Shown piece by piece: positions 24,725-30,767 of a DNA stretch of 37,242 bases. Position 1 is the first letter of the stretch; each line of letters begins with the position of its first letter. The notes under the pieces were generated by a model. It saw nothing but the letters and a program-made list of their open reading frames with translations. It did not search any database and was not told the DNA's origin. Origin of the DNA: a virus; the UHGV virus genome UHGV-1405961. One strand, written 5' to 3'. The translations under genes and the position numbers were made by a program.

Positions 24725-24994
24725 TCATTCCTTCATCTCCCTTTCCATTTCATCAATGTCAACGTCATCAGGAAGATGGGAGCAATACGCCGCTATACCA
24801 TGATGATTTATCTCATACCCTTTGAACGTTACCATCTGGCGCGTAATCTCAACTTCGTTCAGGAATCCGTCATCGCATAACTGCCTGGCTATTTTCGATT
24901 TGGTCTGGATTATTGGTAGTGCCTGTTCTTTCAAAGCGCATGATATTTGTGCATCCCATGCCTTTTCGAGAATGGCTAATTGTTTTTTATTCAT
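24725..24994 (-). CDS. Hypothetical protein
   Basis: 89-aa ORF immediately downstream of the helicase gene; its start overlaps the helicase stop. Confidence 0.5.
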   Translation of the reverse strand: MNKKQLAILEKAWDAQISCALKEQALPIIQTKSKIARQLCDDGFLNEVEITRQMVTFKGYEINHHGIAAYCSHLPDDVDIDEMEREMKE

Positions 24995-26430
24995 CAGAAT
25001 CCTCCTTTCTTCTTGGACTGCGGTTCCTCGCGTTCACGGCGGCGCATTTCAGCAGACTGTTGGTCTGTGTCATAAATAGCGCCATTTGCCTGAATGCAAT
25101 ACACCGTGCCGGTATTGCCATGACGATTGAGACGAAGGATTAGTTCAGTTTCACCAGGTGGAACACTGTCATCAAAAGCGCCTTCCCGATGGACCCCGAC
25201 CCAATAATCGCAATCCTGTTCAATCTGCCCTGTATCTCGTGAGTCACTTGGTAATGGGCGTTTATTGGTTCGGCTTTCCAGTGCGCGGTTAAGCTGCGTC
25301 AGAAGCACAACAACGCAATCAAGCTCTTTGGCAAGGTTCTTCAGTCCTTTGGTGATCATGCCGTAAGCAAGGTCGTTGCGATCGGCCTTCTCAGCAGTCA
25401 TTAGTGTCAGGTAATCGACCAGAATCATGCCAACACATCCTTTTTCTCGCTTGATTCGACGGCTTTCGCTGACGATTTGAGCCAGAGATAATCCCGGCGT
25501 GTCGTCGATGTAAAGCAGGTCGATTTCACTCAAGCGATTGGCTGTTTCGATCGCCCTGTTGAAGTCACCATCGTAATCACCCTGATAGCCGTCATCAGCG
25601 TCATTTGTCGCCGGAAGGTAAAAAATATTCGGGTTAACACCAGACTTCTGCCCTACCAGTTTTTCCAGTATCTGATCACCTGGCATTTCAAGGCTGAACA
25701 TCAGAGCGGGCTTTTTCTCATGCACTGCGCAGTTGATTGCCATCTGGCTGTATAGCGTCGTTTTCCCCATCTTAGGGCGAGCGCCAATGACGAACAGAGA
25801 GCCTTTCACCAGACCTTTCGGTGACAGCATCCTGTCCAGCGATGGTATTCCTGTGCTCATTCCTCGTTGTTCACCTGACGGGTCAAATCGCTTCTCAAGG
25901 TCGCTAACCCAGTCTTCCATGACCTCACCAAATGAGCGAAGGCCGCGACGCGATCCGGTTTTTGCATGGTCTGTCAGTTGCGTGAAAATCGACTGAATAG
26001 CTTCGTACTTCTGCGTTGCAGTCATTCCATTGCGGGAATAGAGCAATTCCGTCGCTTCAGTCATGCGGTTGATGGCGTAGCGTTCCATTGCGGTTTCACG
26101 AACCTGCATTGCATAGGCAACGATGTTTGCTGCGCTTGGCGTGTTCTTTGCGATCTCAGCGATATAAGCAAAACCGCCAACAGACGCCGTTAACGATTTA
26201 CGCTCCAGTTCATCGAAAAGCGTCAGGCCATCTACTGGCTTTTGCTCCCGGTGCATTCTGGTTATCTCTTCGAAAAGGATTTTGTGTGGTCGGCTGTAAA
26301 ATGAATCAGGCTTCAGCATCGCCAGAACTTTCTGGACGCGCTCACTGCTGTCATCATCCAGAAGCAATCCACCAATCACCGCCTGCTCTGCCTCGATGCT
26401 ATGGGGCGGCGCATAAAAATTATCGGTCAT
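24994..26430 (-). CDS. Replicative DNA helicase (DnaB-like, P22 gene 12-type)
   Basis: 478 aa from ATG 26428-26430; DnaB N-terminal motif (IEAEQAVIGGLLLD) and Walker A (GARPKMGKTT); start overlaps the O-like gene 3' end. Confidence 0.9.
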   Translation of the reverse strand: MTDNFYAPPHSIEAEQAVIGGLLLDDDSSERVQKVLAMLKPDSFYSRPHKILFEEITRMHREQKPVDGLTLFDELERKSLTASVGGFAYIAEIAKNTPSAANIVAYAMQVRETAMERYAINRMTEATELLYSRNGMTATQKYEAIQSIFTQLTDHAKTGSRRGLRSFGEVMEDWVSDLEKRFDPSGEQRGMSTGIPSLDRMLSPKGLVKGSLFVIGARPKMGKTTLYSQMAINCAVHEKKPALMFSLEMPGDQILEKLVGQKSGVNPNIFYLPATNDADDGYQGDYDGDFNRAIETANRLSEIDLLYIDDTPGLSLAQIVSESRRIKREKGCVGMILVDYLTLMTAEKADRNDLAYGMITKGLKNLAKELDCVVVLLTQLNRALESRTNKRPLPSDSRDTGQIEQDCDYWVGVHREGAFDDSVPPGETELILRLNRHGNTGTVYCIQANGAIYDTDQQSAEMRRREREEPQSKKKGGF

Positions 26431-27319
26431 CGTGTTCACCCTCACGAACTTTCAGGTAGGTATTATCGTTAAGCAGGAAATCAAATCCCTTTTTGTGCCA
26501 GACGGTTCCGCGTTGATGGTTTGGACGCTCTTCGAACATCCATCGGCAATTTTCGCCTACGTAGCTCAAATAATTTCTCCAGTCCTGCATCGTGAAACCA
26601 TGCCCGTCAAGCTGGCGGGTTATCACTCCGGCTTTGCGCCAGAACGTTCGGATCTGGTTTTTACGCTTGTCATTCAGTGCGCGGATTCTTGGCGCTTCAG
26701 GAAGGATTTCGTGGTAAGCATCGACAACATCCTGACAGCTAACGGAAGGTTTTTTCTTGTCAGACTTTTTGTCTGCTGCGGTACTCTCTAATACGTCAGT
26801 ATTAGAGATAATATTATTATATTCTTTATCTGTGGTAATTTGCTGGTAATCTGCTGGTACAGTATTGCTTGCAGGCATTGGTATTGCTGGCTTTGAGGTG
26901 GTAATTTGCTGGTAATCTGCTGGTACAAAATTTGACTGATAATCGTCATATTTCTCTACCGAGAAAACTGAGAATTTACCGTGTGAAACCCAGTCAATCA
27001 TGCCGAGTTTTTTGAACTTTCTAAGCAGGTACTGAACGCGATCTGGTTTGAGTCCTGTTTCAAACGCCAGAGAGTTTCTACCGCCAAGTAGCTTCCCTCT
27101 GCCTACCAGAATTTCTCCTGCGTCAGTCATTACATACTCAGGCGTATGCTTTGCTTTGAGGATTAAGTGAACCCACAGATGCGCAGCTTCTGCGTCCTTG
27201 TAAAACGGCACATCCATAATTTTACGGTGCAGCAAGGCATACCCCTTACCGCTGCTTTGATGCGGTTGTTGTAGCCTTCTGGCCTCTCTGGCTTCGGCTA
27301 GATTAGATATGTTACTCAT
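26420..27319 (-). CDS. Replication initiator (lambda O / P22 gp18-like), containing the origin
   Basis: 299 aa; position upstream of the helicase; encodes the duplicated peptide [10 protein letters not shown](S/D)K from the internal DNA iterons. Confidence 0.75.
26832..26927. repeat. Origin-of-replication iterons inside the initiator gene
   Basis: GTGGTAATTTGCTGGTAATCTGCTGGTACA occurs twice (26832-26861 and 26898-26927) with related GGTATTGCTGG copies between them and an AT-rich tract (AGAGATAATATTATTATATTC) alongside at ~26808-26830. Confidence 0.65.
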
Positions 27320-27458
27320 GACCTTTCTCCTTCTGCATCAGCTTCACTTTTTCCAACTCAGCCCGGAATCGACCAGGCTGCTTGAAGCTGGACAGGAAGC
27401 GATCACGTAGTATGTGTTTGTGAATTTTGTCCTGGTAAGGACTGAGTGGTTTTGTCAT
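27312..27458 (-). CDS. Hypothetical small basic protein (48 aa) between cII and O
   Basis: Not in the supplied track (<60 aa). Translated by me: [53 protein letters not shown] 4 nt upstream; ATG overlaps the upstream stop (TAATG) and its stop overlaps the O-like start. Confidence 0.45.
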
Positions 27459-27862
27459 TAAGCCTCCTCTACTTCGTAATCAGCGAAGTAACCAGTAGAC
27501 ATTTTTAAAAACCTTGATTCGGTGACTGTGTAAGCCTTCCTTCCTTTCCTCTCCTTGCCTTCAGGCTCTATGAGGTGGCACGAATAAATGATTCTGCGCT
27601 GCCAGTTGCCTGGCATTTCCACCACTGCCAGAACCTCAAGAATTCTCTTTCCTTCAGCATCAGCGGTGTAAAAACACTGATCACCATAACCACAATCGGC
27701 TGGCTCATAATTTTTGTGACAACCGCCAATCCAGCGCTCATCGGTATGCACGTTGCCGTCATAAGACTGATAATCTGTGCATACGAAGATAAATGGATAT
27801 ACGGTTTCGAACTTGTCACCGGCCTTTATGCCGGTGTTTACTTGCTTGGTTTGTCCTGGCAT
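27458..27862 (-). CDS. Hypothetical Cys-containing protein (134 aa) inserted between cII and O
   Basis: ATG 27860-27862 with AGGAG 7 nt upstream; [32 protein letters not shown]...[20 protein letters not shown]...SCHLIEPEG. The track ORF extends upstream into cII out of frame. Confidence 0.55.
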
Positions 27863-27871
27863 AATTACTCC

Positions 27872-27938
27872 TGTTACTTGGCGTAACACAGTGTGCTTAA
27901 GCGTCCAGACTGCTACCAACAGCTGGGCGTTTTTCTTT
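27872..27938 (+). ncRNA. Candidate oop-like antisense RNA (antisense to the cII 3' end)
   Basis: Plus-strand promoter-like TTTACT(27837-27842)-N17-CATAAT(27860-27865), then hairpin CGTCCAGACTGCTACCAACAGCTGGGCG and TTTTTCTTTT ending about 40 nt inside the cII 3' end; the same arrangement as lambda oop. Confidence 0.4.
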
Positions 27939-28175
27939 TGTGAGAATCGATGCCACCTGCTGAGCAAGTCTCGCCATCTCATCATCAACAACTCCCCATT
28001 CAAGAACAGCCAGAAGCATGGCCATCTTTGGGATAAAGCTGTCTTTCCATCGCGAAATTTGCGATTCATTAATCCCTAACGCGTCGGCAACCTTTCGCTG
28101 ACCACGTACAGCAATTCGATTCAGGATGTTGCTTGTAATTGCATTCGCTTTCTTGCGAGTACTTGTAAGTTGCAT
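27897..28175 (-). CDS. cII: Transcriptional activator CII
   Basis: 92 aa from ATG 28173-28175; ...ESQISRWKDSFIPKMAMLLAVLEWGVVDDEMARLAQQVASILT recalled as near-identical to lambda CII over the conserved core. Confidence 0.85.
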   Translation of the reverse strand: MQLTSTRKKANAITSNILNRIAVRGQRKVADALGINESQISRWKDSFIPKMAMLLAVLEWGVVDDEMARLAQQVASILTKEKRPAVGSSLDA

Positions 28176-28195
28176 ATGTAAGTATTTCCTTAGAT
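28150..28195 (+). promoter_or_regulatory. Candidate pRE with CII-binding repeat (TTGC-N6-TTGT) overlapping the cII start
   Basis: TTGCGAGTACTTGT at 28153-28166 followed by CATATGTAAGTATTTCC, as in the lambda pRE region; orientation points toward cro/cI antisense. Confidence 0.35.
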
Positions 28196-28254
28196 AACAA
28201 TTGATTGAATGTATGCAAATAAATGCATACACCATAGGTGTGGTTTAATTTGAT

Positions 28255-28286
28255 GCCCTTTTTCAGGGCTGGGATGTGTAAGAGCG
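28255..28286 (-). promoter_or_regulatory. nutR (boxA CGCTCTTACACA, boxB GCCCTGAAAAAGGGC)
   Basis: Minus strand reads CGCTCTTACACATCCCAGCCCTGAAAAAGGGC, matching lambda nutR boxA/boxB as recalled; between cro and cII. Confidence 0.8.
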
Positions 28287-28294
28287 TTGATAAC

Positions 28295-28525
28295 TTAAGC
28301 AGCCATTAATTCAGGCCAGATGCTTTCCCAATCAACCGGATGAAGGTCTTTGCGAGTCACTTCACCATTGCTGAACTTCTCAATCAGAACACAAAGTGCT
28401 GCGCCCAATTCATGATTACGGCTAAGTGCTTTCCTCAAATAGCCGATAGAAGTTCCGCACTTGGTGGCAAATTCTCTCTGCTCTTCCAGTGAAAGGGAGT
28501 TCAGATACAAGCGGAGTTCTTCCAT
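28295..28525 (-). CDS. cro: Cro-like repressor (HTH; YdaS/Cro family), not lambda Cro
   Basis: 76 aa, first gene rightward of OR and divergent from cI; HTH-like QREFATKCGTSIGYLRKALS; AAGGAG Shine-Dalgarno. Confidence 0.7.
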   Translation of the reverse strand: MEELRLYLNSLSLEEQREFATKCGTSIGYLRKALSRNHELGAALCVLIEKFSNGEVTRKDLHPVDWESIWPELMAA

Positions 28526-28556
28526 TTGCTATCTCCTTCCCGTTGTTGAATAAGGT

Positions 28557-28633
28557 AAGTTTACCTGCAGGTAAAAAACAAATCAATACCCACAGGTTAT
28601 TTACCAACAGGTAATCAAAGATAGAATTAAATC
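28557..28633. promoter_or_regulatory. OR region: CI/Cro operators (TTTACCTGCAGGTAAA and TTTACCAACAGGTAAT) with divergent pR (minus) and pRM (plus)
   Basis: Perfect 16-bp palindrome at ~28560-28575 and a related site at ~28600-28615. Minus-strand TTGATT-N17-TAAACT overlaps the first site (pR); plus-strand TAGAAT lies 8 nt before the cI ATG, implying a near-leaderless cI mRNA as in lambda. Confidence 0.6.
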
Positions 28634-29320
28634 ATGGATAAATACGAACAAAGACGACTAAGGCTGATAGAGATAAGAGACCGATTCTGTAATGGAAAGG
28701 CCTCAGAGTTGGCTCGTCGAATAGAAAGGGAACCATCATACGTTTCCAGAATGCTGTATCCGGAAGGAAAAAGCGGAAAAAAACGCATTGCTGACGATAT
28801 GATGGAACTAATTGAAAAATCTTTTAATCTCCCACGCGGATGGATGGACATGCTTGCAGATAGCAAAGTTGGATCTGCAGACCATCTTGAGTTTGCGGGT
28901 AACGTTCGTGCGGGTTTTGTTCCGGTAATTGGTGAAGCCGTTTTGGGAGTTGATGGCTCAGTGGATATGATTGAATTCAGATCCGGTTGGTTAAGCATCT
29001 ACAGTGGCGATAAAGATGCTTACGGTCTGAAGGTTAAGGGTGACAGCATGTGGCCAAGGATTCAGTCAGGAGAATATGTTGTTATTGAACCAAATACGCC
29101 AGTACATCCAGGTGATGAAGTCTTTGTAAGGACCAAAGATGGTCATAACATGATAAAGATCATGAACAAAACAAGAGACGGAGACTATCAGTTTAGTAGT
29201 ATAAACAGCGATCACCGTCCAATCACTCTTCCTGTTGAAGAAGTTGATAAAATGCATTTTGTTTCAGCTATTGTGAAACACACTAGGTACGTAGACCAGG
29301 ACGATCTGCCAAAATTTTGA
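28634..29320 (+). CDS. cI: CI repressor (N-terminal HTH, C-terminal S24 LexA-like autopeptidase)
   Basis: 228 aa; S24-type C-terminal domain motifs (VKGDSMWPRIQSGEYVVIEP, Ser-Lys dyad context) and divergent position from cro. Confidence 0.85.
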   Translation: MDKYEQRRLRLIEIRDRFCNGKASELARRIEREPSYVSRMLYPEGKSGKKRIADDMMELIEKSFNLPRGWMDMLADSKVGSADHLEFAGNVRAGFVPVIGEAVLGVDGSVDMIEFRSGWLSIYSGDKDAYGLKVKGDSMWPRIQSGEYVVIEPNTPVHPGDEVFVRTKDGHNMIKIMNKTRDGDYQFSSINSDHRPITLPVEEVDKMHFVSAIVKHTRYVDQDDLPKF

Positions 29321-29334
29321 GGATAAAGCAGCAA

Positions 29335-29631
29335 ATGTTTATACCAGGTATAGTGGTCGCTGTTGTAATCATCTGCTTCATATGGGCAAAGTTATCTCCT
29401 GTAAGCTCTAAGCATACAGCTGAACTCATGAAGAAGAAGCATCTTATACATGAGGCAGAAACGATAATTAAGAAGTTCAAAGGCATGTCATATGACGACA
29501 TGTCATCAGATCAGATTGCTATATATAAATGCGCCATTGAGCGTCTTGACTACTTAAACGGACTCAAACCCAAACACACCCCGGTAGAATCAAAATTGCC
29601 GCAATGGCCAAGCAATCCAAATAGCTTCTGA
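29335..29631 (+). CDS. Hypothetical small membrane protein co-transcribed with cI (rex-slot moron)
   Basis: 98 aa from ATG 29335 (track ORF starts at TTG 29317); N-terminal TM helix MFIPGIVVAVVIICFIWAKL; AT-rich; followed 12 nt later by a strong terminator. Confidence 0.55.
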   Translation: MFIPGIVVAVVIICFIWAKLSPVSSKHTAELMKKKHLIHEAETIIKKFKGMSYDDMSSDQIAIYKCAIERLDYLNGLKPKHTPVESKLPQWPSNPNSF

Positions 29632-29642
29632 CATCTCCTTTC

Positions 29643-29667
29643 AGCCCGCAAAGCGGGCTTTTTTATA
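29643..29667 (+). terminator. Rho-independent terminator ending the cI operon
   Basis: AGCCCGCAAAGCGGGCT followed by TTTTTTAT. Confidence 0.75.
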
Positions 29668-29683
29668 TCAATCCAAAAAATTA

Positions 29684-29770
29684 ATTACCTGAAAATTCAA
29701 ACAGGTAAACTCTCACACCAATTTTATTTACCTGCAGGTATAGACAACAGTTTTACCTGTAGGTATATTT
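29684..29770 (+). promoter_or_regulatory. OL operators and pL promoter
   Basis: Operator copies TTTACCTGCAGGTATA (29727-29742) and TTTACCTGTAGGTATA (29752-29767) plus a split site at ~29686-29710; pL -35 TAGACA (29741-29746), 17-bp spacer, -10 TATATT (29764-29769). Confidence 0.65.
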
Positions 29771-29809
29771 TAAGCCATCAGCAGGACGCACTAACCACCA
29801 TGAAGGTGA

Positions 29810-29840
29810 TGCTCTTAAAAATTTAGCCCTGAAGAAGGGC
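29810..29840 (+). promoter_or_regulatory. nutL (boxA-like GCTCTTAA, boxB GCCCTGAAGAAGGGC)
   Basis: The string TGAAGGTGATGCTCTTAAAAATTTAGCCCTGAAGAAGGGCAGC matches lambda nutL as recalled. Confidence 0.8.
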
Positions 29841-30108
29841 AGCATTCAAAGCAGAAGGCTTTGGGGTGTGGTGAAGCCAGCTAGTCACTGGCAAGTGCTT
29901 ACCTACTGTTGAGCGGTGAAGCGCTCCCAACGCTAGCAATAGCGTGGACGAGATGGGGAGCCGCGGGCGATAAGGCCGCCATAACGCGCACGTTGTCGCA
30001 TGGAAAAATCGCTGGGGTGCCGGTTATACCCCTCCGAATGAGACTCAACAAGCTGGAGCTAGACTACCAGCCACCACACCACCAAAGCTAACTGACAGGA
30101 GAATCCAG

Positions 30109-30435
30109 ATGGATGCACAAACACGCCGCCGCGAACGTCGCGCAGAGAAACAGGCTCAATGGAAAGCAGCAAATCCCCTGTTGGTTGGGGTAAGCGCAAA
30201 ACCAGTTAACCGCCCTATTCTCTCGCTGAATCGCAAACCGAAATCACGAGTAGAAAGCGCACTGAATCCGATAGACCTTACGGTGCTGGCTGAATACCAC
30301 GAACAGATTGAAAGCAACCTGCAACGTATTGAGCGCAAGAATCAGCGCACATGGTACAGCAAGCCACGCAGTGAAATGGGTGTGACTTGTGTTGGTCGCC
30401 AGAAAATGAAATTAGGCAGCAAACCACTTATTTGA
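30109..30435 (+). CDS. N: Antitermination protein N
   Basis: 108 aa, MDAQTRRRERRAEKQAQWKAANPLLVGVSAKPVNRPILSLNRKPKSRVESALNPIDLTVLAEYH.QIESNLQRIERKNQRTWYSKP, recalled as lambda N (Arg-rich boxB-binding motif); AGGAG Shine-Dalgarno. Confidence 0.9.
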   Translation: MDAQTRRRERRAEKQAQWKAANPLLVGVSAKPVNRPILSLNRKPKSRVESALNPIDLTVLAEYHEQIESNLQRIERKNQRTWYSKPRSEMGVTCVGRQKMKLGSKPLI

Positions 30436-30443
30436 GGTGAGAT

Positions 30444-30767
30444 ATGGAAGCATTAGTAGTAGAGCGAAGCGAGGATGGCTACTGGACGCACCCAGAATAC
30501 GCCAACCTGTTTGGGGATAGAGAGGCAATTTCAGCTGATGAGTTCAGATCTTTCTGCAAGCAGCATGGCATTGAATCATCAATTGTTGAAATGGAAAACG
30601 ACAACAATCAAACGGTAATTGACGCGTATTTTGAAGATGGGAATCCAAACATCAGTGGATGGGAGCCAAGCATGCCAGATGGAGAAGGATGGTTTGTCGG
30701 TTCGATTCACGATACAGAAGACGGTCCGATCTGCGTTTGGTTCAGGAATGTAGATAAGGCCGCATAG
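30444..30767 (+). CDS. Hypothetical acidic protein (early-left operon)
   Basis: 107-aa ORF with GAGGTGA Shine-Dalgarno immediately after N. Confidence 0.5.
   Translation: MEALVVERSEDGYWTHPEYANLFGDREAISADEFRSFCKQHGIESSIVEMENDNNQTVIDAYFEDGNPNISGWEPSMPDGEGWFVGSIHDTEDGPICVWFRNVDKAA

Follow-up and report, generated by a model that had tools for sequence, protein, structure and literature searches.

The window examined here is a stretch of 37,242 nucleotides (nt) of the virus genome UHGV-1405961. Its minus strand carries, in order of transcription, cro, a boxB element, cII, an open reading frame (ORF) of 134 amino acids, an ORF of 48 amino acids, an O-like replication initiator gene and a gene for a DnaB-like helicase. 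The two ORFs between cII and the initiator are the subject of this report. The first, an accessory gene that we call X, spans positions 27458–27862 and was assigned to PHROG 30464; its translation equals the RefSeq protein WP_001119433.1. The second, at 27312–27458, also on the minus strand, encodes a basic protein of the Pfam family DUF2740 and corresponds to orf48 of phages P22 and HK022 and to HkaW of HK620. An earlier, sequence-only reading had taken the pair for a two-gene insertion. The two ORFs are indeed there, as their positions and their Pfam and PHROG matches confirm, but only X is a rare extra gene, the 48-residue one being the common orf48. The reading that we favour, with some reserve, is that the pR operon holds here two delayed-early genes independent of each other and no inserted module; more tentatively, the product of X may be a modulator at the onset of replication. 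The identity and coding status of X, its mosaic placement and the anatomy of the operon follow directly from the comparisons below, and the account of anatomy and evolution is far more secure than our guess at the function of X.

X starts with the ATG at 27862, from which translation yields 134 amino acids and at which its homologues also begin. Alignments place a conserved ribosome-binding site (RBS), ACAGGAGTAATTATG, in the intergenic junction between cII and X (27863–27896, minus strand), and an AGGAG motif lies 7 nt ahead of the start codon, within AACAGGAGTAATTATG. The stop codon of X overlaps the start codon of the 48-residue ORF in GAGGAGGCTTAATG (TAATG), and between the stop of the latter and the beginning of O there is an 8-nt overlap (ATGAGTAA). 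Both X and the 48-residue ORF have a Shine-Dalgarno sequence; O has its own, AAGGAG, upstream of its ATG. The RBSs, the TAATG coupling and the overlap with O had been correctly described in the sequence-only reading, and the compositions stated there agree with the proteins: the X product contains 5 cysteines, and the 48-residue protein is basic, with an isoelectric point (pI) of 10.1 and 12 lysines and arginines versus 6 aspartates and glutamates.

Judged by its relatives, the 48-residue ORF is the ordinary lambdoid orf48, the default tenant of the position between oop and the initiator in phages of the P22, HK022 and HK620 type. It matches DUF2740 (PF10872) over the complete model (positions 1–43 of 43) and scores 99.4 bits, where the gathering cut-off is 27 (E = 9e-29). 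The protein is 97.9% identical to HK620 HkaW and HK022 orf48, 83% identical to P22 orf48 and 58% identical to an Erwinia phage counterpart. Its likeness to the P22, HK022 and HK620 genes extends beyond this 83–98% identity to length, to the position between oop and initiator and to the 8-nt overlap with the initiator start, which is found in the window, in HK620 (hkaW, 1501–1647 of locus L007) and in P22. The P22-pbi record is annotated with c1, a terminator of the oop type and a promoter ‘homologous with lambda’, orf48 and gene 18, in a layout from which the window differs in that orf48 stands behind X, not directly behind cII and oop, and in that a pO-like promoter overlies X instead.

The lambdoid region was already laid out as cII-oop-‘orf’-O-P by Hayes et al. 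(2012; PMC3349717), with lambda lacking orf48. The statement of the sequence-only reading that cII is followed directly by the initiator thus fails for P22, where orf48 intervenes between c1 and gene 18. The window resembles this known slot in its oop/RBS linker and in having a variable small ORF ahead of an O-like gene; a 162-nt ORF occupies the same slot in HK97. It differs in holding two ORFs, one of them of 134 amino acids, compared with the 48–54 described. The junction between cII and initiator is, in other words, a known variable slot with orf48 as its usual tenant, and orf48 by itself gives no ground to speak of a two-gene insertion. A DUF2740 gene is present in 127 of 50,697 phage records (a cII homologue in 209). 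A comparison of the junction across genomes, as the sequence-only reading had proposed, separated the two genes: the junction query matched 1263 of 5426 complete E. coli genomes, and every E. coli match among the matches listed was annotated as cII-DUF2740-replication gene, while X was found in two of the 5426. The same slot holds orf48 in Shiga-toxin (Stx) phages and many E. coli prophages, and the gene travels with differing initiator families. A literature search on DUF2740 and hkaW found no relevant paper.

The constant 8-nt overlap invites the thought that the 48-residue ORF is mainly a translated leader, feeding ribosomes to the initiator and carrying the pO promoter, and not a functional protein. 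An antisense promoter lies over the 5' end of orf48 in P22, the ORF accompanies different families of initiator and lambda does without it, all of which would fit a leader. We nevertheless regard this as rather unlikely, given that the amino acid sequence is conserved (in the comparisons with P22 and the Erwinia phage), that a curated Pfam family exists and that O has a Shine-Dalgarno sequence of its own. The ratio of nonsynonymous to synonymous substitution rates (dN/dS) is 0.29 against P22, indicating moderate constraint over few sites. AlphaFold2 places helices at residues 7–25 and 28–44, with a predicted local distance difference test (pLDDT) score of 84.8 from the single sequence; the protein is thus predicted, confidently, to be a small basic helical hairpin. 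PHROG 1913 and numerous phage records of RefSeq give homologues of orf48 the name ‘tail protein’. The label is not credible, because orf48 sits inside the replication operon; it looks like a propagated mis-annotation and should be corrected in both places.

X matches PHROG 30464, a family of ‘unknown function’, with E = 2.7e-95 and residues 1–134 aligned to model positions 1–134; all 70 diverse relatives that were scanned match the same family. No match to X was found in Pfam, NCBIfam or PADLOC scans, nor did a Pfam scan of the 70 relatives give any. Against three relatives, at dS values of 0.66–0.86, dN/dS of X is 0.045–0.066, and 26 close homologue clusters occur in Enterobacterales. By this substitution pattern X is a genuine, strongly constrained gene and not a chance ORF; with the DUF2740 match and the dN/dS of orf48, the expectation that both ORFs are real genes is borne out. 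A profile search among 1.84 billion representatives retrieved 184 relatives at E ≤ 1e-3, mostly of 115–140 amino acids.

The two E. coli genomes in which blastn finds X are CFSAN061770 and MS 115-1, both with 100% nucleotide identity. Phage HK639 encodes a hypothetical protein, HK639_53 (YP_004934083.1), that is 91% identical to the X product, and further phage records contain it at 78% (Hafnia phage Meifeng) and 82% (two Klebsiella phages). Two Leptolyngbya cyanophages hold a distant relative with 27% identity, and the family reaches phages well beyond Enterobacterales. On this distribution X is evidently an accessory gene, rare and mobile; its phage family is uncharacterised and already known as ‘hypothetical protein’ in HK639 and RefSeq. 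A literature search on WP_001119433 and phrog_30464 found nothing relevant. X is the one candidate left at this junction: a constrained, mobile early gene without family annotation or structural neighbour. HK639 is a cultured phage, and the prophages of MS 115-1 and CFSAN061770 are likewise available for work on X.

Adjacent genes joined by TAATG, one acidic and one basic in product, could be thought of as a cargo module acquired together, perhaps a toxin-antitoxin-like or anti-defence pair; the block cII-oop-X-orf48, common to the window and CFSAN061770 at 99.7% identity, would agree with this. The distribution speaks strongly the other way. All 127 phage records with orf48 lack X, as do all but two of the 1263 junction-matching E. 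coli genomes, and in the IMG/VR and annotated-record loci compared, a DUF2740 gene follows X in only six besides the window. Conversely, X occurs without orf48 in HK639, in Meifeng, in about 36 loci of the IMG/VR database where it adjoins the initiator, and in all the Klebsiella and distant contexts. The claim that the two genes form one module thus did not survive the comparison, and we give such a functional pair very little chance. As a toxin-antitoxin or other obligate pair, X and orf48 were rejected on the same distribution.

The genomic context of X was compared in 76 IMG/VR loci and in annotated records. X follows cII in 35 loci and a YdaT-type analogue, as in HK639, in nine, about 47 loci in all being of this kind; in about 36 it stands directly 5' of a replication initiator. 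Small ORFs between X and the initiator are, apart from the DUF2740 genes, a divergent 48-residue ORF (one locus) and a 54-residue ORF (three loci). The initiators that come after X fall into four or more groups without relation to one another: two types of Phage_rep_O, the O type of HK022 and the type that follows the X homologue in HK639. In the loci where X follows cII or YdaT, its junction with the next gene is always TAATG or ATGA, and the codons for its acidic C-terminus (GAGGAGG) double as the Shine-Dalgarno sequence of that gene.

Elsewhere the surroundings of X vary. About 30 Klebsiella prophage loci have it in the early-left accessory region, with Ead/Ea22-like genes on either side. 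Among distant relatives, one (locus L096) is directly 5' of an initiator, with an ATGA overlap, in the order methyltransferase-X-initiator-DnaB; others are placed immediately 3' of genes for DUF1376/DUF6475, or for DUF6291 and a lambda-P-like protein, and still others have DUF1376 in their vicinity, or else AAA_24, helicase and primase genes. One is set downstream of cII, and distant relatives also occur in nin-like, YopX and Erf/YqaJ-integrase regions. X is thus apparently an early-region accessory gene whose association with replication modules is recurrent but not exclusive and shows no specificity for a type of initiator or helicase. One distant relative is fused to an N-terminal DUF3850/ASCH-like domain (protein P0071, locus L089, 6001–6843); the early-left region of the prophage in which it is found extends from genes for Erf and YqaJ to the integrase. 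Nine other longer relatives were scanned, and their extra sequence gave no Pfam match.

The boundaries of X can be traced by comparison with relatives that share only parts of the locus. An E. coli ECONIH4 prophage has the ‘empty site’, cII-DUF2740-O without X. It diverges from the window from the middle of cII to the ATG of orf48 and matches it through the start of O; its annotated O also has 299 residues and is followed by a DnaB-like gene. Between the window and CFSAN061770, the shared block from cII to orf48 is flanked by differing immunity and replication genes. With HK639, similarity begins about 35 nt upstream of the X start codon, taking in a hairpin (TGTTACGCCAAGTAACA) and the RBS, and extends to the TAATG. 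The linker ACAGGAGTAATTATG precedes O in lambda, orf48 in HK620 and ECONIH4, and X in the window, HK639 and Meifeng, and most of the loci with X behind cII have sequence of the same type ahead of X. The placement of X is, by these alignments, a classic lambdoid exchange of modules at a conserved boundary sequence. X would have been set into the slot by homologous recombination at the oop/RBS linker, and in doing so would have taken over the RBS that otherwise serves orf48 or O.

HK639 provides a close parallel. Its X homologue is immediately preceded by the cII analogue and a small RNA that the record annotates, a replication gene follows at once, and the TAATG junction, the upstream linker and the hairpin are all as in the window. 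The differences are in the neighbours: HK639 has a YdaT-type analogue of cII, no orf48, another initiator and a P-like loader, whereas the genes downstream of X in the window are orf48, an O of the HK022 type and a helicase of the DnaB type. The small RNA is annotated in the HK639 record as ‘M3-like RNA’ (L001, 2931–2990), directly upstream of the X homologue and at the site of hairpin TGTTACGCCAAGTAACA; a literature search for this name found nothing relevant.

At the short end of the evolutionary scale, the window, CFSAN061770 (L004) and MS 115-1 (L102) share the 405-nt X gene at 100% identity, while the repressors differ. In one of these X-identical prophages the replication genes differ as well, a 286-residue Rep and a toprim protein taking the place of the 299-residue O and DnaB. 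Identical X genes amid differing repressors and replication genes imply a very recent exchange of the cII-X-orf48 block.

On the plus strand, a promoter scan identified a pO-like antisense promoter at 27837–27865, TTTACT-17-CATAAT, with a TG upstream of the −10 element. It covers the first 11 codons of X, start codon included, and its −10 element (CATAAT) is the linker ACAGGAGTAATTATG read on the opposite strand. Its position matches that of the P22 promoter annotated across the start of orf48, and among the roughly 46 loci in which X comes after cII or a YdaT-like gene, 41 retain it. In the Klebsiella copies from the Ead/Ea22 context, the promoter is absent and the N-terminal residues are missing from the proteins. 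Because promoter and residues are absent together, and because residues 1–9 are the low-confidence segment of the AlphaFold2 model of X, selection on the first codons may act more through the antisense promoter than through the protein. An oop-like antisense RNA of about 65 nt is predicted at 27872–27938 (plus strand, ends approximate) from its fold and from alignment with lambda and P22. It would begin with a 5' hairpin, TGTTACTTGGCGTAACA, followed by a terminator hairpin and a T-run, and would overlap the 3' end of cII; in the alignment promoter and predicted RNA take the place of lambda oop, a transcript type of about 65–77 nt, and of the P22 promoter and terminator.

For the coding strand, a scan of positions 27000–28700 (cro to O, minus strand) found no promoter-like or terminator-like sites. 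Between cro and cII, at about 28255–28270 on the minus strand, there is a boxB element, GCCCTGAAAAAGGGC, identical to that of lambda nutR, and an ORF closely resembling lambda N is located at 30109–30435 on the plus strand. X should lie inside the repressor-controlled pR operon, downstream of nutR and tR1, because it has no autonomous signals, uses a shared RBS and overlaps the start of the next gene. This supports the view that both ORFs belong to the pR operon. On this anatomy and by homology with lambda, X and orf48 should be delayed-early genes, N-dependent, driven from pR and silent in the lysogen; once N lets transcription pass tR1, X would be made along with cII, O and the helicase.

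As a sporadically distributed extra gene of prophages, X might be a lysogenic-conversion gene (‘moron’) or a superinfection-exclusion gene, one that the prophage expresses to the advantage of its host. In view of the missing coding-strand promoter and terminator, the operon RBS slot that X uses and its overlap with the next gene, this explanation seems to us highly improbable; the moron idea was rejected for want of autonomous signals in the scanned interval. The lambda-like N ORF and boxB stand alongside replication genes of the HK022/P22 type, which makes the window a clear mosaic.

The X product has a mass of roughly 15 kDa and a pI of 5.2. The AlphaFold2 model, calculated with 18 homologues (pLDDT 84.9, predicted template modelling score 0.68), consists of seven beta-strands, two of them long (residues 17–32 and 69–82), and a C-terminal helix (115–122). 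Across 70 diverse members of the family Pro23, Gly47, Gly71 and Arg90 are invariant, and Gly15, Phe24, Trp44, Pro100 and Gly102 nearly so. The family motifs YPF, W-x-G-G-C, A-D-x-E-G, M-P-x-x-[YW]-Q-x-R-x-x-Y and D-P-D-G are all present in X. The conserved residues are thus those of turns and core (glycines, prolines and aromatics) plus one invariant arginine, and no catalytic-looking set was found among the conserved positions of the 70 sequences. We infer that X is a non-enzymatic protein with a binding or modulating role.

A zinc-binding fold, which the sequence-only reading had named as a target for searches, is not supported by the conservation of the cysteines: Cys48 is broadly conserved and Cys56 in part, while Cys28, Cys62, Cys94 and His49 vary. 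With fewer than four conserved cysteine or histidine ligands, no Pfam zinc domain and an all-beta model, this candidate was rejected. Sequence and profile searches of the PDB with X returned only noise at E > 0.4. Foldseek against the PDB gave nothing below E = 0.4, the best match being to PC4-like single-stranded DNA binders over 49 columns, and a structure search of BFVD retrieved one unnamed viral protein.

What X does can be approached through the company that it keeps. It could be a dedicated accessory of replication initiation, acting on the initiator, the helicase loader or the host replisome, and not a factor for counter-defence or host takeover. X recurs immediately 5' of initiators from at least four families, with translational coupling, and adjoins replication genes in distant phages; the Foldseek resemblances to PC4-like and SSB single-stranded DNA binders, weak and non-significant, point in the same direction. 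On the other side, X is rare and dispensable, since ECONIH4, which lacks it, has an equally long O-like gene at this junction, and X keeps to no one type of initiator or helicase. It also occurs in the Ead/Ea22 region of the Klebsiella prophages and in the Erf/YqaJ-integrase region elsewhere, and its acidic pI is atypical for a DNA binder. We therefore consider a dedicated accessory role doubtful. Under the reading of X as a modulator made at the onset of replication, it would be dispensable for replication itself; we suggest only tentatively that its product acts when phage DNA replication begins and that its target is a host protein, a defence factor or a nucleic acid.

The anti-defence or host-takeover role raised in the sequence-only reading and a role linked to replication are, for X, equally live alternatives. 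Like accessory or counter-defence genes of early operons, for instance lambda Ral and the accessory genes screened by Silas et al. (PMC12373910), X is small, sporadic and mobile, lies at mosaic boundaries, would be expressed early and, in Klebsiella, sits in the Ead/Ea22 accessory region. Unlike them, it has no sequence or structural similarity to a known anti-defence protein: neither PADLOC, Pfam nor structural searches matched it to a defence or counter-defence family. Neither the X nor the orf48 peptide was found in the supplementary files searched for PMC12373910; the ‘orf48’ named in that paper belongs to its own numbering (gnarl1) and is not P22 orf48.

Several points weigh against our account of X and its setting. 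Its pR expression, like that of orf48, is inferred from anatomy. The presence of the family in Ead/Ea22, nin-like and Erf/YqaJ early-left regions means that adjacency to replication genes may only reflect crowded early regions and a recombinogenic linker. The fold of the oop-like RNA has a z-score of only −1.06 and is not statistically distinctive, and an Rfam scan of 26000–30500 matched no RNA family at the junction. A bolder version, to which we assign a low probability, is that the 134-residue protein founds a new early-phage family with an unseen beta fold, is translated together with the initiators and neutralises a host factor or defence system that acts on the initiation of phage replication; its recurrent position 5' of unrelated initiator families would then be due to function and not to ease of recombination. 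If X does modulate replication or counter defence, a new protein family would be gained.

The remaining genes of the locus are all on the minus strand. In the ORF list cro occupies 28295–28525. The upstream neighbour of X, cII, spans 27897–28178 (Pfam Phage_CII, E = 4.5e-43); the ORF as listed extends over 27897–28235, the true start being at 28178. Downstream, the O-like initiator gene (26420–27319; PHROG 345, ‘replication initiation O-like’, E = 5.6e-88) encodes 299 residues and is followed by the DnaB-like helicase gene (24994–26445). Within the O-like gene there are two 35-nt direct repeats, 94% identical, at 26832–26866 and 26898–26932. They contain internal GGTAAT(T/C)TGCTGGTA sub-repeats and encode a duplicated peptide; the direct repeats are probably the iterons of the replication origin.

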